DNA from: Minisyncoccia bacterium
GTDB taxonomy: Bacteria > Patescibacteriota > Minisyncoccia > 2-02-FULL-40-12 > IGHO2-01-FULL-4-A
DNA: 64,000 bases
Direction of reading: 5' to 3'
Assembly (NCBI GenBank): GCA_050015375.1
Contig: JBEKBN010000006.1
Span: 454 to 64,453 of the forward strand
The notes beneath the pieces are model-generated. The model did not search any database. It was not told the DNA's origin and worked only from the letters and a program-made list of their open reading frames with translations. Positions 5,849 through 58,509 of the stretch are shown one piece after another (the stretch's first letter is position 1; every line of letters starts with the position of its first letter). Position numbers and translations under genes: made by a program.

Positions 5849-6574
5849 ATGTATTTATCCGTCATTATTCCCGCCTACAACGAAGAAAAAAGGATCGGCA
5901 AGACGCTTTTGGCGGTGGATGAATATCTATCGGGACAAAAATACGATTCTGAGATTATCGTGGTGGATAATAATTCAAAGGACAAAACGGCCGATATTGT
6001 CAATAATTTAAAATTTAAAATTTATAATTTAAAATTAATTTCCCAGCCAATTCAAGGCAAAGGCAATGCCGTAGCCAAAGGAATGCTTGAAGCATGGGGC
6101 GATTATCGGGTTTTCATGGATGCCGACAATTCCACCTCCATAGATCATATTGAAAAAATGTGGCCGTTCATTTCGACCGGTTACGATGTTGTCATAGGAT
6201 CGCTCGCGGTCAAAGGCGCAAAGATTCTCCAAGGCGGAGCCGAACCGTGGTGGCGAGTGCTTTTGGGGAAACTCGGCAACAAATGGATCCAGATCTTCGC
6301 GGTCTGGGGAATAAACGATACCCAAAGAGGTTTCAAAATGTTCACGGCCAGAGCGACGGAAAAAATATTTCCGAAATTGACAATATTTGGCTGGGGATTT
6401 GATGTCGAAGTTTTGGCTTTAGCAAAAAAATACGGATACAAAATAAAAGAAATTCCGATAATCTGGGATAACGACCCAAATTCAACGGTGAATTTCTGGG
6501 CCTATCCACAAGTTTTAATGCAAACCGTAAAAGTCAGATGGAATCTATTGATCGGGAAGTATAATAGCCATTAG
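5849..6574 (+). CDS. family 2 glycosyltransferase (dolichyl/polyprenyl-phosphate sugar transferase-like)
   Basis: N-terminus SVIIPAYNEEKRIGKTL...IVVDNNSKDKT...DADNS carries GT2 DxD-type motifs. Confidence 0.8.
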   Translation: MYLSVIIPAYNEEKRIGKTLLAVDEYLSGQKYDSEIIVVDNNSKDKTADIVNNLKFKIYNLKLISQPIQGKGNAVAKGMLEAWGDYRVFMDADNSTSIDHIEKMWPFISTGYDVVIGSLAVKGAKILQGGAEPWWRVLLGKLGNKWIQIFAVWGINDTQRGFKMFTARATEKIFPKLTIFGWGFDVEVLALAKKYGYKIKEIPIIWDNDPNSTVNFWAYPQVLMQTVKVRWNLLIGKYNSH

Positions 6575-6638
6575 TTATTAGCCATTAGTTTTTAGAAAAA
6601 TCCTAAGTTCTAATGGTTAAGTCCTAATTACTAACTTG
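6568..6638. repeat. tract of ten heptanucleotide units (CCATTAG/TTATTAG...CTAATGG/CTAATTA/CTAACTT) filling the GT2-galT intergenic region
   Basis: Strict 7-nt periodicity with TAG/TAA anchors, running from the GT2 stop to the galT TTG start. The same CTAACTTG junction occurs at ftsE. Confidence 0.6.
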
Positions 6639-8260: not shown

Positions 8261-9015
8261 AGACATTAGTAGCAAACTGGAAAATGAATCCCCAAAAATT
8301 GGCTGAAGCCGAGGAACTTTTTGAATACACCATCGCCGAATCGGCCAAATATCCGAACGTCAAAACGATAATTTGTCCGCCGTTCGTCTTTATTGAGGAA
8401 TTGTCCAAATTTCTACAAACTACAAACTACAAACTACAAACTAGCATCGGTTCCCAAAATATTTTTTGGGAATCCAAAGGAGCATATACCGGTGAGATTT
8501 CCACCGAGATGCTGAAAAATTTCGGCGTTAGCCATGTTTTGGTCGGCCATTCCGACCGGCGATATGTCATCGGCGAAACGGACGAGGAAATTAATAAAAA
8601 AATAAAAGCCGCGCTTTTGACCGATATAACCCCGGTGCTTCTAGTTGGCGAGAGAGAAGGCGAGAACCGCGAAGAAATTTTGAGGAAACAATTATCCGCT
8701 GACCTGGCCGGCGTTTCGGCGCCCCATTTGGGGAAGATCCTTTTTGCCTACGAACCGGTCTGGGCAATAAGCACAAATCCGAATGCAAAACCCGATACGC
8801 CCGAAAACACTTTGAAGGCGATCACATTTATAAATAATCTTCTTGCTATCAGCTATAAACTACCAGCCATAAGCTGTCTCTATGGCGGTTCGGTCAATGA
8901 AAAAAATATCGTTGATTTTCTCAAACATCCGGAAATCTCCGGCGCCGTCGTCGGCGGAGCCAGTTTGCGAAAAGAAGAATTTGGAAAAATGTTAAACTTA
9001 GTTTCAACAATTTAA
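8257..9015 (+). CDS. tpiA: triosephosphate isomerase
   Basis: ANWKMNP...VGHSDRRYVIGETDEEI...GGAS motifs. Overlaps the dedA stop (ATGA). Contains an in-frame heptamer-repeat insertion. Confidence 0.9.
   Translation: MKTLVANWKMNPQKLAEAEELFEYTIAESAKYPNVKTIICPPFVFIEELSKFLQTTNYKLQTSIGSQNIFWESKGAYTGEISTEMLKNFGVSHVLVGHSDRRYVIGETDEEINKKIKAALLTDITPVLLVGEREGENREEILRKQLSADLAGVSAPHLGKILFAYEPVWAISTNPNAKPDTPENTLKAITFINNLLAISYKLPAISCLYGGSVNEKNIVDFLKHPEISGAVVGGASLRKEEFGKMLNLVSTI
8413..8447. repeat. (CTACAAA)x4 heptamer tract inside tpiA, in frame, encoding LQTTNYKLQT
   Basis: Four perfect CTACAAA units plus a degenerate fifth (CTAGCAT). They map to a loop that is shorter in B. subtilis TPI. Confidence 0.7.
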
Positions 9016-11102: not shown

Positions 11103-12254
11103 ATGAAATATCGCGATCCATTGTATGGGGAATGGGAATTACCACCGGTTATTAAAGAATTGGTCCAATCTCGAGCGATGGACAGATACCGGAAGATCAC
11201 CATGTCTTTGTTGCCAAATTCCATGGAACCGCTGGGGACAATTCCAAGCCGATTTCATCATGGAATGGGCGTCTGTTTTTTGGCCCAGGTGGTCGTTGGA
11301 AATAGCATCTCATGGCCCGAAGCAGTTTTCGATCCTTTGGTACTGTTGGTTGCTTCACTGCTTCACGATATCGGCAATCCGTCTTTTCCGCATTTGTCTG
11401 AACCATTTTTAATAGAATTTTGGGGTAAAAATGGTGAAACATTCGCCGCGGACATTATCGCCGGTACGGATATTCCGGAAATTCTCGAGAAATATGATAT
11501 TCCAATCGAAAATGTTCTTGATTTCATTGCCGGAACATTAAGGCCGTATTCAGATGTTCTGAACGGTTCGCTCGATCTCGATAATCTGGACACTCTCCGC
11601 TATGATTATTTCGCGAAATTGGGTGGAATTGACTACGACCCGGTCAAGATCGCCGGAAGTTTCCGGTTTAAAAATAACCGCTGGGTTTTGGATAAAAAAT
11701 GCCAAAGCAATGTTGCCGCATGGAAAATGAATCGGGGAATGGTCTACCGTAAGATTTACAGTTCTCAACATTTGTCTGTGGTTTCAATGGTGCATCGGGC
11801 GCTTGAACTCGCGTTTTTAAAAGGCGAGCTGAACCACGATTTTTTCTTCCTGAATGACGAAGAGGCGGTCAATTTCCTTCGAACCAAATGCAATCCAAAA
11901 ACGGCTAAACTGATGGATATGGCGACGAGATGGCAGTGGTATGATCTGGCTTACGATTATCAGACGACAAATCCCAACCAATGGTTGATTAAAGCATCAA
12001 CTGGCTGGCGAAGCAGGAGGGCCTTGGCTGATGCGATCTGTTTGGACCTGCATTTGTTGCGTGAAAACGTCTGTGTTTATATCGACCGAGGGAGAGACAC
12101 GAGAAGGATCAAAATCCCATTTAGCGACGGGAAAAACCTTGTATTCGATGATGAAGTCGAGATTCCGATTTATCGAATAAAAGTATTTATGGATCCATCC
12201 ATTGGTTACACGAGAAACGATATTAAAGAAATTATTGATGACCTCATCAACTAG
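11103..12254 (+). CDS. HD-domain phosphohydrolase-like protein
   Basis: H...LLHDIGNPSFPH...D pattern typical of the HD superfamily. Confidence 0.6.
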   Translation: MKYRDPLYGEWELPPVIKELVQSRAMDRYRKITMSLLPNSMEPLGTIPSRFHHGMGVCFLAQVVVGNSISWPEAVFDPLVLLVASLLHDIGNPSFPHLSEPFLIEFWGKNGETFAADIIAGTDIPEILEKYDIPIENVLDFIAGTLRPYSDVLNGSLDLDNLDTLRYDYFAKLGGIDYDPVKIAGSFRFKNNRWVLDKKCQSNVAAWKMNRGMVYRKIYSSQHLSVVSMVHRALELAFLKGELNHDFFFLNDEEAVNFLRTKCNPKTAKLMDMATRWQWYDLAYDYQTTNPNQWLIKASTGWRSRRALADAICLDLHLLRENVCVYIDRGRDTRRIKIPFSDGKNLVFDDEVEIPIYRIKVFMDPSIGYTRNDIKEIIDDLIN

Positions 12255-12281: not shown

Positions 12282-12311
12282 CAAAAAATCCGCTTGAAAG
12301 CGGATTTTTTG
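12282..12311 (-). terminator. Rho-independent terminator for rnpB (minus strand)
   Basis: ATCCGC-TTGAAA-GCGGAT hairpin flanked by A6 and T6. On the minus strand it is followed by a U-run. Confidence 0.55.
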
Positions 12312-12875
12312 ATGTCTTGGCAAATCTGTAAGCCGAATTCTGTTCCCCCACTTTTTGAGTTGCCCCAAAAGTGGGGGAGGCGATCATTTATCTGGTCCCT
12401 CGGTTACCCTCGGGATCTAGCGTCTCTTCCCCCACTTTTTAAGTTGCCCTAAAAGTGGGGGACACGGACTTGCACCGGGCAGGGTTTAGCGCGCATCCAT
12501 GTCGCCATGGAGCGGTCCCGTTCGGGGCCTTTTCACCCGTGATCCGCTTGCGCGGACTCGGAATAGTTTCTGTGCCACTTTCCCTGAATTTTGATAAATA
12601 ACTTTTGTCTTAAGAACAAAAACTATCCATCTTATATTCGGTGGCCATTAGCCACTGCCCTGCTTACGCAATCACCAACTGCTAATCTCTAATCTCAAAT
12701 AAAACCATTGGCGATCTTAGTTAACAATTAATGATTGCGTAAGCGGTGTTCGGACTTTCCTCCCTAAAACATTTTGCTTTCGCAAAATGTTCGGGCGATC
12801 AATTCGCAAAGCGAATTGATTTAGCCCCAAATCCAATAAGAATTCGTAGAGTAATCACCCGATTTACCAGGACTT
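12312..12875 (-). ncRNA. rnpB: RNase P RNA (bacterial type A-like) with an extended helix and twin hairpin insertions
   Basis: Reverse complement carries GGGAGGAAAGUCCGAAC (P4 5'), CAGGGCAG, AGUGGCACAGAAAC, CGCGCAAGCGGAUCACGGGUGAAAAGG, CUAAACCCUGCCCGGUGCAAG and ACAGAAUUCGGCUUACAG (J/P4 3'). These align with E. coli M1 RNA. The 5' and 3' ends are approximate. Confidence 0.8.
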
Positions 12876-12879
12876 TACA

Positions 12880-12908
12880 ATTATACCAGTATTGTGCTAT
12901 CTTTGCAA
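12880..12908 (-). promoter_or_regulatory. sigma-70-like promoter for rnpB (TTGCAA-17 nt-TATAAT on the minus strand)
   Basis: Forward-strand ATTATA at 12880-12885 and TTGCAA at 12903-12908 with a 17-nt spacer. It lies just upstream of the RNase P RNA 5' region. Confidence 0.55.
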
Positions 12909-23630: not shown

Positions 23631-25460
23631 ATGCAAAACATCCGCAATTTTTGTATAATTGCTCACATAGACCATGGCAAAAGCACCTTAGCCGACCGGC
23701 TTTTAGAATTGACGGGCACAATTGAAAAGCGCAAAATGCACGAACAATTTCTGGACCAGATGGAATTGGAGCGTGAAAGAGGGATTACCATAAAACTCCA
23801 ACCCGTCCGCATGCAATACGGCGAATATATTTTGAATTTAATAGATACGCCGGGCCATGTGGATTTCACCTACGAAGTTTCTCGTTCGCTGGCGGCGGTG
23901 GAGGGTGCGATTTTACTTGTGGATGCCGCCAAAGGCGTTCAAGCCCAGACACTGGCCAATTTGCATTTGGCGCAAAGACAGAATTTGGTCATTATTCCGG
24001 TCATCAACAAAATTGATCTACCCAATGCCAGAGTGGCCGAAGCCGAAGAAGAAATTTCCAATTTGCTTGCCGTTGAACCGGACGAAATTATCAAGATTTC
24101 CGCCAAGACCGGTGAAGGCGTGGAGAAAGTTCTTGAAGCGGTTGTCGAAAAAATTCCCCCGCCATCTACTCACTACTCACTACCAACTACCAACTATCCT
24201 CGCGCCCTGATTTTTGATTCCGCTTTTGACGCTTACAAAGGCGTTGTCGCTTATGTCAGGATTTTTGACGGCAACTTCCGGGCCGGAGACAAAATTAAAC
24301 TTTTCGCTTCCAAAGCCGAAGCCGAGATAATCGAAGTTGGTCAGTTTAAACCCGCCTTGAGCAAAACCGATTCTATCGGCGAAGGTGAGATCGGCTATAT
24401 CGCCACCGGTTTGAAAAATCCCGGCGATGTCCGCGTTGGTGATACGGTTTTCTCTACAAACTATAAACCACAAACTACAAACTTTTCACCCCTTCCCGGC
24501 TACAAAGAACCGATGCCGGTGGTTTTCGCCAGTTTTTTTCCGGAAAAAGGGGAAGATTATGATCTGCTGAAAGACGCGCTGGGAAAACTGAAATTGACCG
24601 ATGCCTCGCTGACTTATGAACCGGAATCTTCACCAGCCCTCGGCCGGGGTTTTCGCCTTGGCTTTCTGGGTATGCTCCACACCGAGATCATCAGTGAGCG
24701 GTTGCGCCGGGAATTCAAATTGTCGCTGATAATTTCCTCGCCGTCGGTGGAATATCACATTTTGAAAAAGAACGGCCAAGAAATTCCCATCCGTTCGGCA
24801 TCAGAGATGCCCAATCCGAGTTATATTGATAAAATTTTCGAACCGACGGTTGTGCTGGAATTGTTGAGCCCATCTGAATATCTCGGTTCATTGATGAAAC
24901 TTCTTTCCGAAATGCGAAGCTCTTATCTAGCCACTGATTATTTGACCAAGGAAATCGTGATTTTAAAATACAAAGTCCCGCTGACTGAAATTGTGACCGA
25001 TTTTTATGACAAACTGAAAAGCGTCAGTTCCGGTTACGCTTCGATGAGTTATTCACCCCCACACTCATTAGATGAGTGTGGGGGCAAGCAGGATGGCTAT
25101 GAGGAATCTGATCTGGTTCGGCTGGATATTTTGGTGGCCGGGGATTTGGTTGAACCGTTTTCGAGAATGGTTCCGAGATCGCGCGTTCATGACGAAGGCA
25201 AGAGAATTGTCGAGAAGTTGAAGAAAATAATTCCGCGGCAATGGTTCGCGGTGGCGATCCAAGCGGCCATCGGCGGGAAAATAATCGCTCGGGAAACCAT
25301 CAGCGCTTTGCGAAAAGATGTTACCGGTTATCTCTACGGCGGGGATATTACCCGCAAGAAAAAATTATTGGAGAAGCAAAAGAGGGGGAAGGCGAGGATG
25401 AAAGAGGAAGGCAAGGTGAATATTCCGCAGAATGTGTTTCTGGAGATGCTGAAAAAGTAG
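23631..25460 (+). CDS. lepA: elongation factor 4 (LepA)
   Basis: IRNFCIIAHIDHGKSTLADRLL...DTPGHVDF and a C-terminus matching E. coli LepA. Contains three in-frame repeat insertions. Confidence 0.92.
   Translation: MQNIRNFCIIAHIDHGKSTLADRLLELTGTIEKRKMHEQFLDQMELERERGITIKLQPVRMQYGEYILNLIDTPGHVDFTYEVSRSLAAVEGAILLVDAAKGVQAQTLANLHLAQRQNLVIIPVINKIDLPNARVAEAEEEISNLLAVEPDEIIKISAKTGEGVEKVLEAVVEKIPPPSTHYSLPTTNYPRALIFDSAFDAYKGVVAYVRIFDGNFRAGDKIKLFASKAEAEIIEVGQFKPALSKTDSIGEGEIGYIATGLKNPGDVRVGDTVFSTNYKPQTTNFSPLPGYKEPMPVVFASFFPEKGEDYDLLKDALGKLKLTDASLTYEPESSPALGRGFRLGFLGMLHTEIISERLRREFKLSLIISSPSVEYHILKKNGQEIPIRSASEMPNPSYIDKIFEPTVVLELLSPSEYLGSLMKLLSEMRSSYLATDYLTKEIVILKYKVPLTEIVTDFYDKLKSVSSGYASMSYSPPHSLDECGGKQDGYEESDLVRLDILVAGDLVEPFSRMVPRSRVHDEGKRIVEKLKKIIPRQWFAVAIQAAIGGKIIARETISALRKDVTGYLYGGDITRKKKLLEKQKRGKARMKEEGKVNIPQNVFLEMLKK
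24166..24200. repeat. heptamer tract (CTACTCA x2, CTACCAA x2, CTATCCT) in frame inside lepA, encoding STHYSLPTTNYP
   Basis: Five 7-nt units with a CTA anchor. Absent from E. coli LepA at the equivalent PAPQGDPDAPLQ position. Confidence 0.65.
24454..24488. repeat. heptamer tract (CTACAAA/CTATAAA/CCACAAA/CTACAAA) in frame inside lepA, encoding TNYKPQTTNF
   Basis: Same unit as the tpiA tract. About 7 extra residues relative to E. coli LepA. Confidence 0.65.
25056..25084. repeat. palindromic element CCCCCACACTCA-TTAGA-TGAGTGTGGGGG (copy 2) inserted in frame in lepA, encoding SPPHSLDECGG
   Basis: Perfect 12-bp arms with a 5-nt loop. Adds about 11 residues relative to E. coli LepA between GYAS and SDLV. 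Confidence 0.75.
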
Positions 25461-30038: not shown

Positions 30039-30109
30039 GCGGGATTAGTACAGTGGCAGTACAATTGCTTCCCAAGCAATGGACGCGAGTTCGATTCTCG
30101 TATCCCGCT
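30039..30109 (+). tRNA. tRNA-Gly (anticodon CCC)
   Basis: Acceptor GCGGGAT/ATCCCGC, D-arm GTACAGTGGCAGTAC, anticodon loop TTCCCAA, T-loop TTCGATT. CCA is not encoded. Confidence 0.85.
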
Positions 30110-30269
30110 CAAAAATCAAAAAATTTTTTGATTTTTGAGCGGGTAAGCGAGCAAATTTATTGCTCGCGTCAAGATGAGAACGCCGGAGCGATGTTTCGCG
30201 AGTGATTGGCGAGCGAAACCGCGAGGCGGTGGCTAGACCGAGCCGCCGGAAGGCGGCGAGAGTCGAAGC

Positions 30270-30300: not shown

Positions 30301-30373
30301 GCCGCCTTAGCTCAGTTGGTAGAGCAGCACTTTCGTAAAGTGAAGGTCCCCAGTTCGACTCTGGGAGGCGGCT
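30301..30373 (+). tRNA. tRNA-Thr (anticodon CGT)
   Basis: Acceptor GCCGCCT/AGGCGGC, D-arm TAGCTCAGTTGGTAGAGC, anticodon loop TTCGTAA, T-arm CCCAG-TTCGACT-CTGGG. Confidence 0.8.
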
Positions 30374-30432
30374 CACAGTTTTCAATCAAGTTAAACGGTT
30401 CCGTTGCAGGTTCTTTTACAAGGAGGCGACAA

Positions 30433-46683: not shown

Positions 46684-47758
46684 ATGACTACTTTGCGTGA
46701 AGAATTGAATAGTATGCAAGATAAGTGCCGTGCCGTGCGGCACCGTCTTTGACCTAGGCGAATCGCGAGAAAAAATCAAGCAAATTGAAACCGAAATGCA
46801 AGCGCCCGGTTTTTGGAATAACAACGAAAAAGCCGGTAAAGCGTCAAAAGAATTAAATGATCTAAAAACCGAAGTCGAATTCTGGGAAACAACGATGCTG
46901 GAACTGGACGAATTCGGAAAGATGTCCGACGAGGAAATTCAGAAAAAAGAAATCGAAATCCGAGCTTTCAAAAAGAATTTCGACAAAGAATACATAAAAA
47001 TATTTTTGTCAGGAAAATACGACAAAGGCAATGCCCTTTTGTATGTCTATTCCGGCGCCGGCGGCGTGGACGCCCAGGATTGGGCTTCAATGCTTTTGCG
47101 GATGTATCAGAAATACGCCGAGCGCGAGGGTTATGGCTGGACGCTTTTGCAACAGTCCTTTGGCGAGCAGAACGGCACCAAAAGCGCCGTCGCCGAGATC
47201 ACCGGCCGCTGGGCTTACGGAAAATTGCGGGGCGAGGCCGGTGTTCATCGTTTGGTCAGGATTTCACCCTTCTCGGCCAAGTCGTTGCGCCACACATCGT
47301 TCGCTCTCGTGGACGTGCTTCCCGAGATTGAAGATGTTAAAATTAATATTGACCCGAAAGATCTGCGAATTGATACTTTTCGGTCATCGGGACCGGGCGG
47401 ACAGAATGTCAACAAACTGGAAACGGCCGTCAGGATCACCCATATTCCGACGAATCTGACCGTTGCCGTCCAATCGGAGCGTTCTCAAGCCCAGAACAAA
47501 GCCAAAGCCATGACGCTCTTGCAATCCCGTCTGGCGCAATTGATGGAAGAGAAAAAAATTCAGGAAATTTCCGAGCTTCGGCTTGACACCAAAGACAGCG
47601 CCATTGAATGGGGTAGTCAGATCCGTTCCTATGTCATTCATCCTTACAAGATGGTCAAAGACCACCGGACCGAGGTTGAGACGACGCAGGTTGACAAGGT
47701 TCTGGAAGGGGAGTTGGATGAATTCATAGAAAAAGAGTTGGTGGTTGGTAGGTCGTAG
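46684..47758 (+). CDS. prfB: peptide chain release factor 2, with a programmed +1 frameshift: join(46684..46749,46751..47758)
   Basis: Frame 0 reads MTTLREELNSMQDKCRAVRHRL then CTT TGA C (46747-46753). The +1 frame continues DLGESREKIKQ...SGPGGQNVNK...GSQIRSYV. Confidence 0.88.
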
Positions 47759-47780
47759 TTTGTAGATTGGAACGCCAAAA

Positions 47781-47816
47781 CTACTTACTACTCACTACTT
47801 ACTACAAACTAACTTG
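47781..47816. repeat. heptamer tract (CTACTTA/CTACTCA/CTACTTA/CTACAAA/CTAACTT) abutting the ftsE TTG start
   Basis: Five 7-nt CTA-anchored units ending CTAACTTG, the same junction as at the galT TTG start. Confidence 0.6.
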
Positions 47817-52965: not shown

Positions 52966-52996
52966 TTAACACCCCCTTTCTATATATTTATTCTGC

Positions 52997-53067
52997 TGCG
53001 GGGCCTGGACTCGAACCAGGATCTTCAGATTCAGAGTCTGACGAGACTACCAATTGCTCAACCCCGC
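52997..53067 (-). tRNA. tRNA-Gln (anticodon CTG)
   Basis: Reverse complement has acceptor GCGGGGT/GCCCCGC, anticodon stem TCAGA/TCTGA with loop CTCTGAA, and T-arm CCTGG-TTCGAGT-CCAGG. Confidence 0.8.
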
Positions 53068-53166
53068 AATATTTGCATTATGCCTTAAAATTATTATTTT
53101 TTCAAATAAAATACCCCATGTTGTGCGTGTTAAGCGACAACATGGGGTCGTCTTTTTTCGGGCGTT

Positions 53167-57427: not shown

Positions 57428-58509
57428 AGAAGCACAAAAAATATTTTTCAATTCCCATTATCCTTTTCTTGATCCTTTTGGTTTTAACCTTGGCTTGGAA
57501 TTTGCTTTCCATCAGGCCGGTTCCCGAAAAAGTAAATTACGGCGTTTCGTTCAGCGTTTTTCATTCCAACGAACTCAATCTGGATTGGAAAAAAACATAT
57601 TTGGCGATCTTAGACGATCTTAAGGTCAGGAACTTGCGGCTTACCGCTCATTGGCCGCTGACCGAGCCGGCCGACGGCAAATACGATTTCTCAGAATTGG
57701 ATTTTCAGATAAACGAAGCCGATAAACGCGGCGCGACCTATATTCTGGCCGTCGGCCGGCGCCTGCCCGGCTGGCCGGAATGCCATGTGCCGGATTGGGT
57801 TATGAATCAAGAATCACAAATCACGAATCAAGGTGAAAAAACTGATTTTGAGAACCAAAAGTTATTGGAATATATTCAGACGACCGTTGAGCGTTACAAA
57901 AATTCCCCCGGTCTGAAATATTGGCAAGTCGAGAATGAACCGTTCCTAGGATTTTTCGGCCGTTCGAGCTGCCAATTGACCGACGAGAATTTTTTCAAAC
58001 AGGAGATCGCTCTTGTCCATAAACTCGATCCGACCCATCCGGTTCTGGCGACCGACAGCGGCGAGTTCGGCTATTGGTATCAGGCCTACCGCGACGGTGA
58101 TGTTTTCGGCACCTCCTTGTATCTGTATGTTTGGTGGCGGGCGCTTGGCATCGGCCCCTTGCGTTATCCCATCGGGCCGTCGTTTTTCCGAGTGAAGCAA
58201 AATGTGGTTGATTTTATCGGTTGTGTCTTGGGCGATTCACCCTCACACTCAATTTTTGAGTGTGAGGGCAAGCCGACAATTCTCATTGAACTGGAAGCCG
58301 AGCCCTGGCTTTTAACACCGATCGTTGACGCGCCGATGGCGACTCTCCTTGACCGGATGGGGATTGATAAATTCGAAACCATGATCCAAACCGCCAAAGA
58401 AGCCGGTTTTGGCGACCAATATCTCTGGGGCGCCGAGTGGTGGTATTGGATGGAACAAAATGGCCATCCGGAATTTTGGCAGGCGGCGAAGCAACTTTTT
58501 AACCAATAA
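57424..58509 (+). CDS. glycoside hydrolase, clan GH-A (GH5/GH113-like)
   Basis: Signal/TM N-terminus, then YWQVENEPF (acid/base NEP) and LIELEAEPW (nucleophile Glu). The family is not resolved. Confidence 0.55.
   Translation: MKKHKKYFSIPIILFLILLVLTLAWNLLSIRPVPEKVNYGVSFSVFHSNELNLDWKKTYLAILDDLKVRNLRLTAHWPLTEPADGKYDFSELDFQINEADKRGATYILAVGRRLPGWPECHVPDWVMNQESQITNQGEKTDFENQKLLEYIQTTVERYKNSPGLKYWQVENEPFLGFFGRSSCQLTDENFFKQEIALVHKLDPTHPVLATDSGEFGYWYQAYRDGDVFGTSLYLYVWWRALGIGPLRYPIGPSFFRVKQNVVDFIGCVLGDSPSHSIFECEGKPTILIELEAEPWLLTPIVDAPMATLLDRMGIDKFETMIQTAKEAGFGDQYLWGAEWWYWMEQNGHPEFWQAAKQLFNQ
58240..58268. repeat. palindromic element variant CCCTCACACTCA-ATTTT-TGAGTGTGAGGG (copy 4), in frame in the GH-A hydrolase gene
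   Basis: Both arms carry a compensatory change (C to T paired with G to A), so pairing is preserved. Encodes SPSHSIFECEGKP. Confidence 0.75.

Follow-up and report, generated by a model that had tools for sequence, protein, structure and literature searches.

An expanded class A RNase P RNA gene

The DNA analysed here, called the window, is a stretch of 64,000 nucleotides of contig JBEKBN010000006.1 from a Minisyncoccia bacterium, an uncultured, ultra-small member of the Patescibacteria (candidate phyla radiation). Its minus strand carries a gene for the catalytic RNA (rnpB) of RNase P, which trims tRNA precursors, and this gene is enlarged by several added hairpins. An Rfam scan of the whole window returned a single ribozyme match, bacterial RNase P class A (RF00010), at 12810..12313 on the minus strand. 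The score of 126 bits lies above the gathering score of 100 (E = 3.6e-38), and the match covers model positions 1-367, i.e. the full model. A sequence-only reading of the locus had already proposed an RNase P RNA of about 560 nucleotides (nt), far longer than the M1 RNA of E. coli, on the basis of conserved core strings. All of these strings are present, on the minus strand, the covariance model supports the assignment, and family alignment gives a length of 560 nt from the first to the last base of P1. The limits of the gene were taken from the family alignments A1 and A2 and not from the Rfam alignment, whose placement of P1/P2, P8 and P9 is shifted by the insertions; for these helices the Rfam placement was dropped and the family alignment was used in its place. 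The limits given earlier, 12312-12875, are correct to within 2 nt. Taken together, the sequence comparisons indicate that the locus is almost certainly a real and functional rnpB of class A whose expansions are specific to its lineage. Judged by the neighbouring sugar transferase, the nearest named relatives are Yanofskybacteria. The features of the locus are collected in Table 1.

Table 1. Features of the rnpB locus, in transcription order
Feature	Coordinates	Strand	Description
Sigma-70-type promoter	12880..12908	-	-35 TTGCAA 12908-12903, 17-nt spacer, TG-extended -10 TATAAT 12885-12880
Whole RNase P RNA gene (rnpB)	12314..12873	-	560 nt, first to last base of P1
P1 5' strand	12861..12873	-	GUCCUGGUAAAUC; pairs with 12326-12314 at 12 of 13 positions, one C.A mismatch
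P2 5' strand	12853..12859	-	GGUGAUU; pairs with GAUCGCC 12385-12379, seven pairs including two G.U
Expanded, branched P3	12762..12851	-	90 nt; base stem CUCUA/UAGGG of 5 base pairs (bp), three hairpins
P4 5' strand	12749..12757	-	AAG(U)CCGAA with bulged U; pairs with UUCGGCUU at 12337-12330
P5	12748-12745	-	CACC; upstream side of the 81-nt hairpin
P5-P7 hairpin	12663..12743	-	81-nt long hairpin with degenerate 7-nt repeats, between P5 and P7
P7	12660-12657	-	GGGC; downstream side of the 81-nt hairpin
P8	12641..12655	-	GUGGCUAAUGGCCAC; covaries in the family (columns 256-270)
Extended P9	12586..12639	-	54 nt; conserved distal stem-loop UUUUGUUCUUAAGACAAAA
P12	12537..12562	-	short, GCAA loop; Rfam alignment and family covariation
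P13 and P14	12492..12529	-	P13 12529-12514, P14 12514-12492; both covary
Twin hairpin A	12429..12461	-	inside P15, at the P16/P17 position; -22.1 kcal/mol
P18	12395..12416	-	GUAA tetraloop, tandem G.A pairs; Rfam alignment and family covariation
Twin hairpin B	12345..12377	-	P19 position, between the P2 3' and P4 3' strands; -24 kcal/mol
Intrinsic terminator	12283..12310	-	AAAAAAUCCGCUU-UC-AAGCGGAUUUUUU; 14-bp perfect inverted repeat

Transcription would proceed along the minus strand from the consensus promoter to the intrinsic terminator just past P1. Both signals had been predicted in the sequence-only reading (TTGCAA-17-TATAAT, and a hairpin with a U run) and both were located at the positions in Table 1. 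The promoter matches the consensus at 10 of 12 positions, has a TG before the -10 box, and this box ends 7 nt upstream of P1. By eye, -35/-10-like pairs (e.g. TTGACA/TTGTCA-17-TATAAT) are found at an equal distance from P1 in relatives. The terminator stem of 12-14 bp is flanked by A and U runs, folds with z = -5.1, is kept in the sister lineage L136 (L-numbers denote the loci compared) and is symmetrical enough to work in both directions. A consensus scan for promoters and terminators did not have the terminator at 12310-12283 among its matches.

Core helices and substrate contact

The catalytic core of the RNA is complete and comprises P1-P5, P7-P15 and P18. RNAalifold applied to 17 family members gave 95 base pairs, 49 of them with compensatory changes, and recovered P1, P3, P4, P7, P8, P9, P10/11, P12, P13, P14, P15 and P18. 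In the family alignment all universally conserved core nucleotides are intact. The P4 pseudoknot forms between AGGAAAGUCC and ACAGAAnnCGGCUUA, and its eight pairs are invariant in the 17 members (alignment columns 154-162 with 898-905). This helix has AA/UU at a place where E. coli has GG/CC.

P1 had previously been described as poorly paired. The true P1 nevertheless pairs along almost its whole length and covaries in 17 sequences (alignment columns 2-13 with 909-920); it had been missed because the 90-nt branched P3 separates P1/P2 from P4. Where most relatives have a U-A pair, at 12870/12317, the window has C.A (5' side altered) and L136 has U.G (3' side altered). These two states look like two halves of a change to C-G, one in each lineage. 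In P2, a change from U21-A to C21-G was found in L127 and L131.

P13, P14 and P18, which type B RNAs lack, are aligned by the covariance model and show compensatory changes (columns 527-562 and 773-793). The earlier suggestion that the P13/P14-P18 region is replaced by twin hairpins therefore does not hold: all three helices are present and covary in 17 relatives. P15 is present as well, formed by GC/GC plus GUC (12469-12467) with GAC (12424-12422). Of the 18 sequences in the length table, 15 have an extended P9 of 54 nt and another has one of 53 nt; this helix carries compensatory changes (columns 314-378) and is common to all related RNAs compared but one.

In other bacteria the GGU motif of L15 pairs with the 3'-CCA of the tRNA. 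This motif is absent from the window RNA, where 12428-12425 on the 3' side of P15 reads AAGA. Three tRNA genes in the window, Gly-CCC (30039-30110), Thr-CGU (30301-30374) and Gln-CUG (52995-53068), do not encode a 3'-CCA, and the absence of GGU fits this lack in the genes. The RNA would be expected to process CCA-less precursors in the manner of an ordinary RNase P ribozyme. Excerpts of a survey of the candidate phyla radiation report that the UGG/CCA-binding motif is missing from 23 of 35 RNAs (PMC8172020).

Expansion relative to the family

Relatives were collected in three ways. A length-based pattern scan of species-representative genomes gave at least 119 long RNase P RNA genes, spread over many phyla, a metagenome scan with lineage-specific 24-mers gave 13 close relatives, and further ones, including the sister lineage L136 with its 97% identical transferase, were reached via transferase homologues. 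Alignment A2 holds 17 distinct family members; the distant L122 enters only the length table, which thus lists 18 sequences (Table 2).

Table 2. Lengths (nt) of the RNA and its segments in the family
Segment	Family	Typical	Window
Whole RNA	383-741	about 390-450	561 (560 from P1 to P1)
P3	17-127	about 20	90
P5-P7 hairpin	9-86	about 20	86 (hairpin proper 81)
P9	54 in 15 of 18	54	54
P12	26-109	27	27
P13-14	42-44 in 17 of 18	43	43
P15-18	57-143	about 70	75
P19	12-88	12	42

Variation among the 18 sequences is confined to P3, the P5-P7 hairpin, P12, P15-18 and P19. Most relatives have RNAs of 383-452 nt, and the window RNA lies about 165-170 nt above the family baseline owing to four added hairpins: the branched P3, the heptad hairpin between P5 and P7, one twin at the P16/P17 site and the other at P19. 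The sequence-only reading had counted two insertions. Its long hairpin and its twins are real, but the 90-nt P3 and the extended P9 had been overlooked. Comparison with the related RNAs shows the insertions to be lineage-specific.

The Rfam score drops with expansion, from 190 bits in L130 and 186 in L129 (both unexpanded) to 131 in L136 and L137, 126 in the window and 108 in L135. The 741-nt RNA of L143 gave no Rfam match at the gathering threshold. This gene (L143:1522-2262; GCA_964364345.1, CAYILQ010000006.1) has a P3 of 127 nt, a P5-P7 segment of 80 nt with heptads, a P12 of 109 nt and a P19 of 88 nt.

The branched P3 and the heptad hairpin between P5 and P7

The P3 expansion folds as a four-way junction (-39.5 kcal/mol, z = -7.8), and the last of its hairpins (12791-12768) is capped by a GAAA tetraloop. 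In most relatives P3 is 17-35 nt long.

The 81-nt element forms one long, nearly continuous hairpin (-34.7 kcal/mol, z = -8.6). Its base is the 12-bp stem CUUACGCAAUCA / UGAUUGCGUAAG at 12743-12732 and 12674-12663, which had been noted earlier together with CUAAUCU heptads; both are present, the heptads as quoted being those of the plus strand. The hairpin had been placed directly after the P4 5' strand, whereas it follows P5 and lies between P5 and P7. Its autocorrelation is highest at a lag of 7 nt among lags 1-12 (0.43), a value reached in 0 of 2000 shuffles, and Tandem Repeats Finder reports the period-7 unit CTAATCT in 2.7 copies at 12682-12700. This is again the plus strand; the RNA itself reads AGAUUAG. 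The units, among them AGAUUAG, AGUUGGU and similar ones, are degenerate.

Significant periodicity at 7 nt is also seen in the P5-P7 hairpins of L136, L137, L140 and L143, as well as in the P3 of L135; the other expansions showed none. The units vary by lineage, and no significant similarity links the window hairpin to the hairpins of L137 or L143. In L140, a recognisable homologue of it occupies the P5-P7 site, and the P3 of L135 shares with the window hairpin the heptad style and an exact 12-nt match, GCUUACGCAAUC (p about 0.004 from shuffles). The idea that the L135 P3 and the L140 hairpin are inverted versions of the window element was rejected: the arms are near-palindromic, so that the sense version can be told from the antisense one only by G.U pairs in place of G-C pairs, and orientation cannot be called from them. 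The L140 element, at the same site, is best read as having the same orientation as that of the window.

Twin hairpins and recurring hairpin modules

In hairpins A and B alike, a GCAA tetraloop caps a 15-bp stem in which one A is bulged. The two lie 84 nt apart within a 40-nt direct repeat of 93% identity. The spacing and near-identity agree with what had been read from the sequence, while the stems of 11 bp with 11-nt loops given there do not. Of their 33 positions, only 12 and 21 differ between the copies; these two are paired, as A-U in A and as G-C in B. Because the differences form one compensatory pair, both copies are held as helices. Copy A is present in L136, where it has one substitution, whereas copy B is missing and a different P19 hairpin, CCGUCAGCUGACGG, takes its place. 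The twin state therefore seems to be recent and specific to the lineage of the window. The 11-mer of the twins has no further occurrence in the 64-kb window. The twin-hairpin motif was also found in a third contig, JGI 3300038424.

Similar stems recur at other sites of related RNAs. In L135, P9 has a stretch of 16 nt in common with the twin hairpin. The 1.06 Mb of DNA examined contains 13 stems of the form CACUUU...AAAGUG, and 10 of the 13 lie inside rnpB genes of this radiation, in P9, P12, P15-17 and P19; for four control words, 1-4 of 11-16 occurrences fall inside rnpB (Fisher p = 9e-5). The hairpin core GCCGAUGAGGC likewise has 7 of its 9 occurrences across all loci inside rnpB genes. Copying of hairpins is thus not limited to the window RNA: L132:165-548 holds three copies of this core in rnpB (at P5-P7, P12 and P15/16), one of them inverted.

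Conservation of the expansions

The 5' 450 nt of the RNA differ from L136 by six substitutions (98.7% identity). P3 has no change in 90 nt, and the P5-P7 segment has one change in 86 nt, which turns a G.U into a G-C pair. At fourfold-degenerate sites, 19% differ between the two lineages in the transferase gene and 46% in the gene of an HD-domain protein on the other side of rnpB. Even at the lower of these rates, the chance of at most one change in 176 nt is 5e-15. Identity to L136 rises from about 0.56 to 0.94 at the stop codon of the HD gene and collapses near the transcription start (within a 50-nt window), so that the conserved block coincides with the transcription unit. Since the expansions are nearly unchanged while flanking silent sites have diverged, they appear to be maintained by selection.

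One patch of about 70 nt is an exception. It spans 12345-12420 (P18, the P2 3' strand and P19) and is only about 40% identical to L136 (L136:1649-2191). The P18 of the window is unlike its counterpart in L136 and similar to that of L135, a more distant lineage. Such a patch in an otherwise about 99% identical RNA shows that recombination also acts at rnpB. Contigs of both lineages, namely L003 with the HD gene of the window and L136, come from one JGI sample, 3300038424.

Heptad repeats in the window and across phyla

Repetition at a 7-nt period is not confined to rnpB. The window contains 6 lag-7 segments where 0.2 are expected, the most of any lag from 4 to 12, and 14 of the 48 rows returned by Tandem Repeats Finder have period 7, with three more of period 14.

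Among the matches listed for the 119 long rnpB genes, lag-7 arrays were found in 22 genes (34 segments), whereas each of the other lags from 4 to 11 was found in 0-4 genes. Because the 119 genes were picked by length, the figure of 22 does not estimate prevalence. In the same set of matches, P12 holds 26 of the 34 segments, in many cases as a pair of inverted arrays that make up the helix arms. Lag-7 segments number 0.51 per kb in rnpB, against only 0.072 for each kb of flanking sequence (binomial p = 2e-15). The genes come from at least seven phyla or candidate divisions, among them Planctomycetota, Bacteroidota, Chloroflexota, Saccharibacteria, Actinomycetota (Acidimicrobiia), Abditibacteriota and Acidobacteriota. 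Examples within L004-L122 are L032, L056, L070, L089, L093, L099, L106, L107 and L121. Among the matches listed, genomes with a heptad rnpB also carry heptad arrays outside rnpB.

Some further arrays in the window were noted. Two more hairpins of inverted heptads lie at the ends of open reading frames, at 6565-6625 and 47735-47812 (units of the TAGCCAT/TAGTTAT and AGTTGGT/ACTACTT types). The local alignment of the 47735-47812 hairpin with the heptad-rich P3 of L135 scores above every shuffle. Heptad arrays also occur within long open reading frames at 8413-8443, 24166-24196, 24454-24483, 57804-57832 and 6005-6036, with the units CTACAAA, CTACTCA/ACTACCA, GAATCAA and AATTTAA. Triose-phosphate isomerase has one of these arrays in a variable loop that is shorter in the relatives L125 and L069.

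Probable origin and retention of the added hairpins

The explanation that we favour, and regard as well supported, is that a functional type A rnpB has gained hairpins derived from repeats or from copies, and that these have been retained under selection. The RNA would thus have been lengthened at outer, permissive sites. The heptad hairpin would stem from a process at the DNA level that scatters heptanucleotide arrays through the genome; judged from the repeats, such a repeat-driven origin is probable, and by analogy it would parallel that of the STRR repeats in the P12 of cyanobacterial rnpB. The P19 twin would be a recent copy of the P16/P17-site hairpin made within the gene, or the reverse, and we lean towards copying of this kind (A to B or B to A) as the simplest origin of the pair. 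The expansions would be kept as structural struts, several of them capped by GNRA loops, and their conservation suggests that they are probably retained in the mature RNA.

Several observations weigh against this explanation. The P6 pseudoknot and P16/P17 of canonical type A RNAs were not identified in the window RNA, and a search by eye for complementarity between the loops of the GCAA hairpins and single-stranded parts of the RNA, as a substitute for P6, gave nothing convincing. Neither the twin nor the 81-nt hairpin sequence recurs in the 64-kb window, so the link to dispersed repeats rests on the shared 7-nt periodicity and similar units and not on identity. Near-identity with L136 could also stem in part from a recent exchange of an rnpB cassette. 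As to the first point, loss of P16/P17/P6 is common in the candidate phyla radiation according to the excerpts of PMC8172020, and membership in class A is therefore compatible with it.

The main competing explanation treats the long hairpins, chiefly the 81-nt one between P5 and P7 and perhaps the branches of P3, as intervening sequences that are cut out of the transcript by RNase III or RNase E. The working RNA would then be a core of about 400 nt in pieces, joined only through base pairs. With about 30 bp in a nearly perfect duplex, the 81-nt element is of the type that RNase III cleaves. There is also a direct precedent in the excerpts of PMC9945441, where the P12 expansion of Thermodesulfatator indicus is removed in vivo. 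However, the sequence gives no sign of processing, and both arms of the hairpin are conserved with respect to L136 beyond what a cleavage duplex needs. A motif search found no RNase III signature in the window, which is a small part of the genome; within the same limits, no RNase P protein was found by motif search. We therefore regard excision as unlikely.

Another explanation would see the twins and the CACUUU/AAAGUG stems as functional modules and not as neutral by-products of duplication. They would be GNRA arms that dock on RNA receptors or share one protein partner, by analogy with archaeal RNase P RNA, in which L7Ae binds two kink-turns. The shared GCAA ends of the twins, the single compensatory pair by which they differ and the concentration of the CACUUU...AAAGUG stems in rnpB are all in line with it, and repeated protein-binding modules are known from archaeal RNase P RNA, as seen in the excerpts of PMC4245976 and PMC5499556. 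On the other hand, the modules occupy different helices and carry different loops depending on the lineage, which speaks against one fixed docking partner, and L136 manages without hairpin B. The occurrence of the GCCGAUGAGGC core in both orientations within L132 is a better fit to copying at the DNA level than to recognition at the RNA level. We consider a modular role of this sort to have a minor chance, similar to that of excision.

It is improbable that the extra hairpins are copies of a mobile palindromic element, similar to a miniature inverted-repeat transposable element or a repetitive extragenic palindrome, that landed in rnpB. The resemblances to the P3 and P9 of L135 described above, as similar hairpins elsewhere in related RNAs, would suit such an element. 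Yet the 64-kb window holds no other copy of either hairpin, none was seen outside rnpB in the loci searched, no target-site duplications were seen, and two scans of viral contigs gave no match to either hairpin; the stems are perfect palindromes, so that their orientation is uninformative. Least credible by far is a decaying pseudogene or chimeric assembly, with function residing in a second rnpB or a protein-only RNase P: the covariance-model score well under the 186-190 bits of relatives and the C.A mismatch in P1 might hint at it, but the insertions account for the loss of score, the universally conserved core nucleotides and the identity to L136 are kept despite diverged flanks, and the gene sequence is identical over the 583 nt compared in contigs of two other assemblies (ENA ERZ27250144 and Logan SRR7028199), agreement between independent assemblies that excludes an assembly artefact.

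Repeat- and copy-derived growth under selection thus remains our preferred explanation for the window RNA. Its extension to other bacteria is speculative. Inverted 7-nt arrays might be a general way in which rnpB grows across phyla, and in this clade the resulting hairpins might then have been copied from site to site in the gene, exchanged among lineages and finally held by purifying selection as GNRA-capped arms; we think this doubtful, though possible.

Comparison with known RNase P RNAs

With type A RNAs (RF00010; E. coli M1 RNA and the P RNA of Thermotoga maritima), the window RNA shares the P4 core with its bulged U, P1-P5, P7-P15 and P18, the GNRA loops on P14 and P18, and the conserved sequences of J3/4, J11/12 and J18/2. 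It differs in its length (560 nt versus about 330-400 nt), in the branched P3, the long hairpin between P5 and P7, the 54-nt P9, the P19 hairpin and the lack of the L15 GGU. Instead of P16/P17 and the P6 pseudoknot, it has one GNRA-capped hairpin of 33 nt.

Large helix extensions are not new in this group. In its excerpts, the survey by Lui et al. 2021 (PMC8172020), which covers the same broad group of organisms as the window, reports that helices are greatly extended in RNase P RNAs from the candidate phyla radiation, that manual refolding was needed and that covariance models missed some cases; these excerpts describe no heptad hairpins, no hairpin at the P5-P7 junction, no duplicated hairpins and no selection on the extensions. 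The RNA of Methylacidiphilum infernorum has an extended P9 and the expansion elements P16.1, P18.1 and P19, and that of T. indicus has the long, excised P12 expansion; heptad structure, duplicated hairpins or a P5-P7 hairpin are not mentioned for either in the excerpts of PMC9945441. Type B (Bacillus-type) RNAs carry the hairpin P5.1 as an insertion between P5 and P7, on the 5' side (excerpts of PMC2858038). The window hairpin sits at this very position, but the RNA is otherwise of type A, with P13, P14 and P18 present and P10.1 and P15.1 absent. Since the P5-P7 hairpin ranges from 9 to 86 nt across the family, homology with P5.1 is unlikely.

The closest resemblance is to cyanobacteria. Tandem 7-nt units in a peripheral helix, together with dispersed heptads in the genome, are features that the window has in common with rnpB genes carrying STRR repeats. 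In 1997, Vioque reportedly described STRR heptanucleotide repeats that lengthen the P12 of rnpB in heterocyst-forming cyanobacteria; the same genomes are said to carry dispersed heptads, and close strains are said to have unrelated units at P12, just as the units of the window are unrelated to those of L137 and L143. The window belongs to another phylum, its repeats lie at the P5-P7 junction and not in P12, and the repeat units are others. Its heptads are also almost unchanged between two diverged lineages, unlike those at STRR sites. As the units are not identical to what we take to be the STRR1-3 consensus, we see a resemblance of kind and not membership in one family.

Helix extensions in this radiation (PMC8172020), an extended P9 and P19 (PMC9945441) and heptads in cyanobacterial rnpB are thus already published. 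A heptad hairpin between P5 and P7, compensated twins, hairpin modules that recur at different sites, selection on expansions and a spread of heptad-built expansions across phyla were not found described.

RNase P RNA is a model ribozyme whose outer helices are usually treated as minor variation. In this clade, additions at six sites spread its length over 383-741 nt, and the largest member escapes the standard Rfam threshold. As large expansions evade this threshold, genome annotation and completeness checks in the radiation are affected. Between two diverged lineages the added hairpins, including a compensated duplicate, are as conserved as the catalytic core, so the expansions offer a natural test of how a ribozyme gains new structural modules. 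To our knowledge, a heptad repeat process in rnpB has been described so far only in cyanobacteria, and the 7-nt periodicity ties the additions seen here to that process. If this is general, it would point to a shared, unexplained mechanism at the DNA level that targets hairpins in structural RNA genes.

Gene neighbourhood and a further expansion

In both the window and L136, the RNase H gene and rnpB are separated by the HD-domain gene (11103-12254 of the window, plus strand). The HD-domain proteins of the two are 73% identical and the transferases 97%. Only six homologues of the HD-domain gene were found; the three examined are in other genomic contexts, without rnpB. A fragment of a 40%-identical HD-domain gene lies near rnpB in L130.

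The gene order triose-phosphate isomerase, phosphoglycerate kinase, RNase H, rnpB and sugar transferase is conserved across much of the radiation. Among the relatives, rnpB always lies between the RNase H and sugar transferase genes, and its orientation flips. It is divergent from the transferase gene in the window, L136, L137, L130, L132 and L124-L127, and co-directional with it in L123, L129, L138, L140, L143, L069 and L122.

Outside this radiation, an insertion was seen in Candidatus Rickettsia kotlanii (L012:2529-2983, AP027062.1). It is palindromic, about 130 nt long and located in the P12 of rnpB, and may be a Rickettsia palindromic element.

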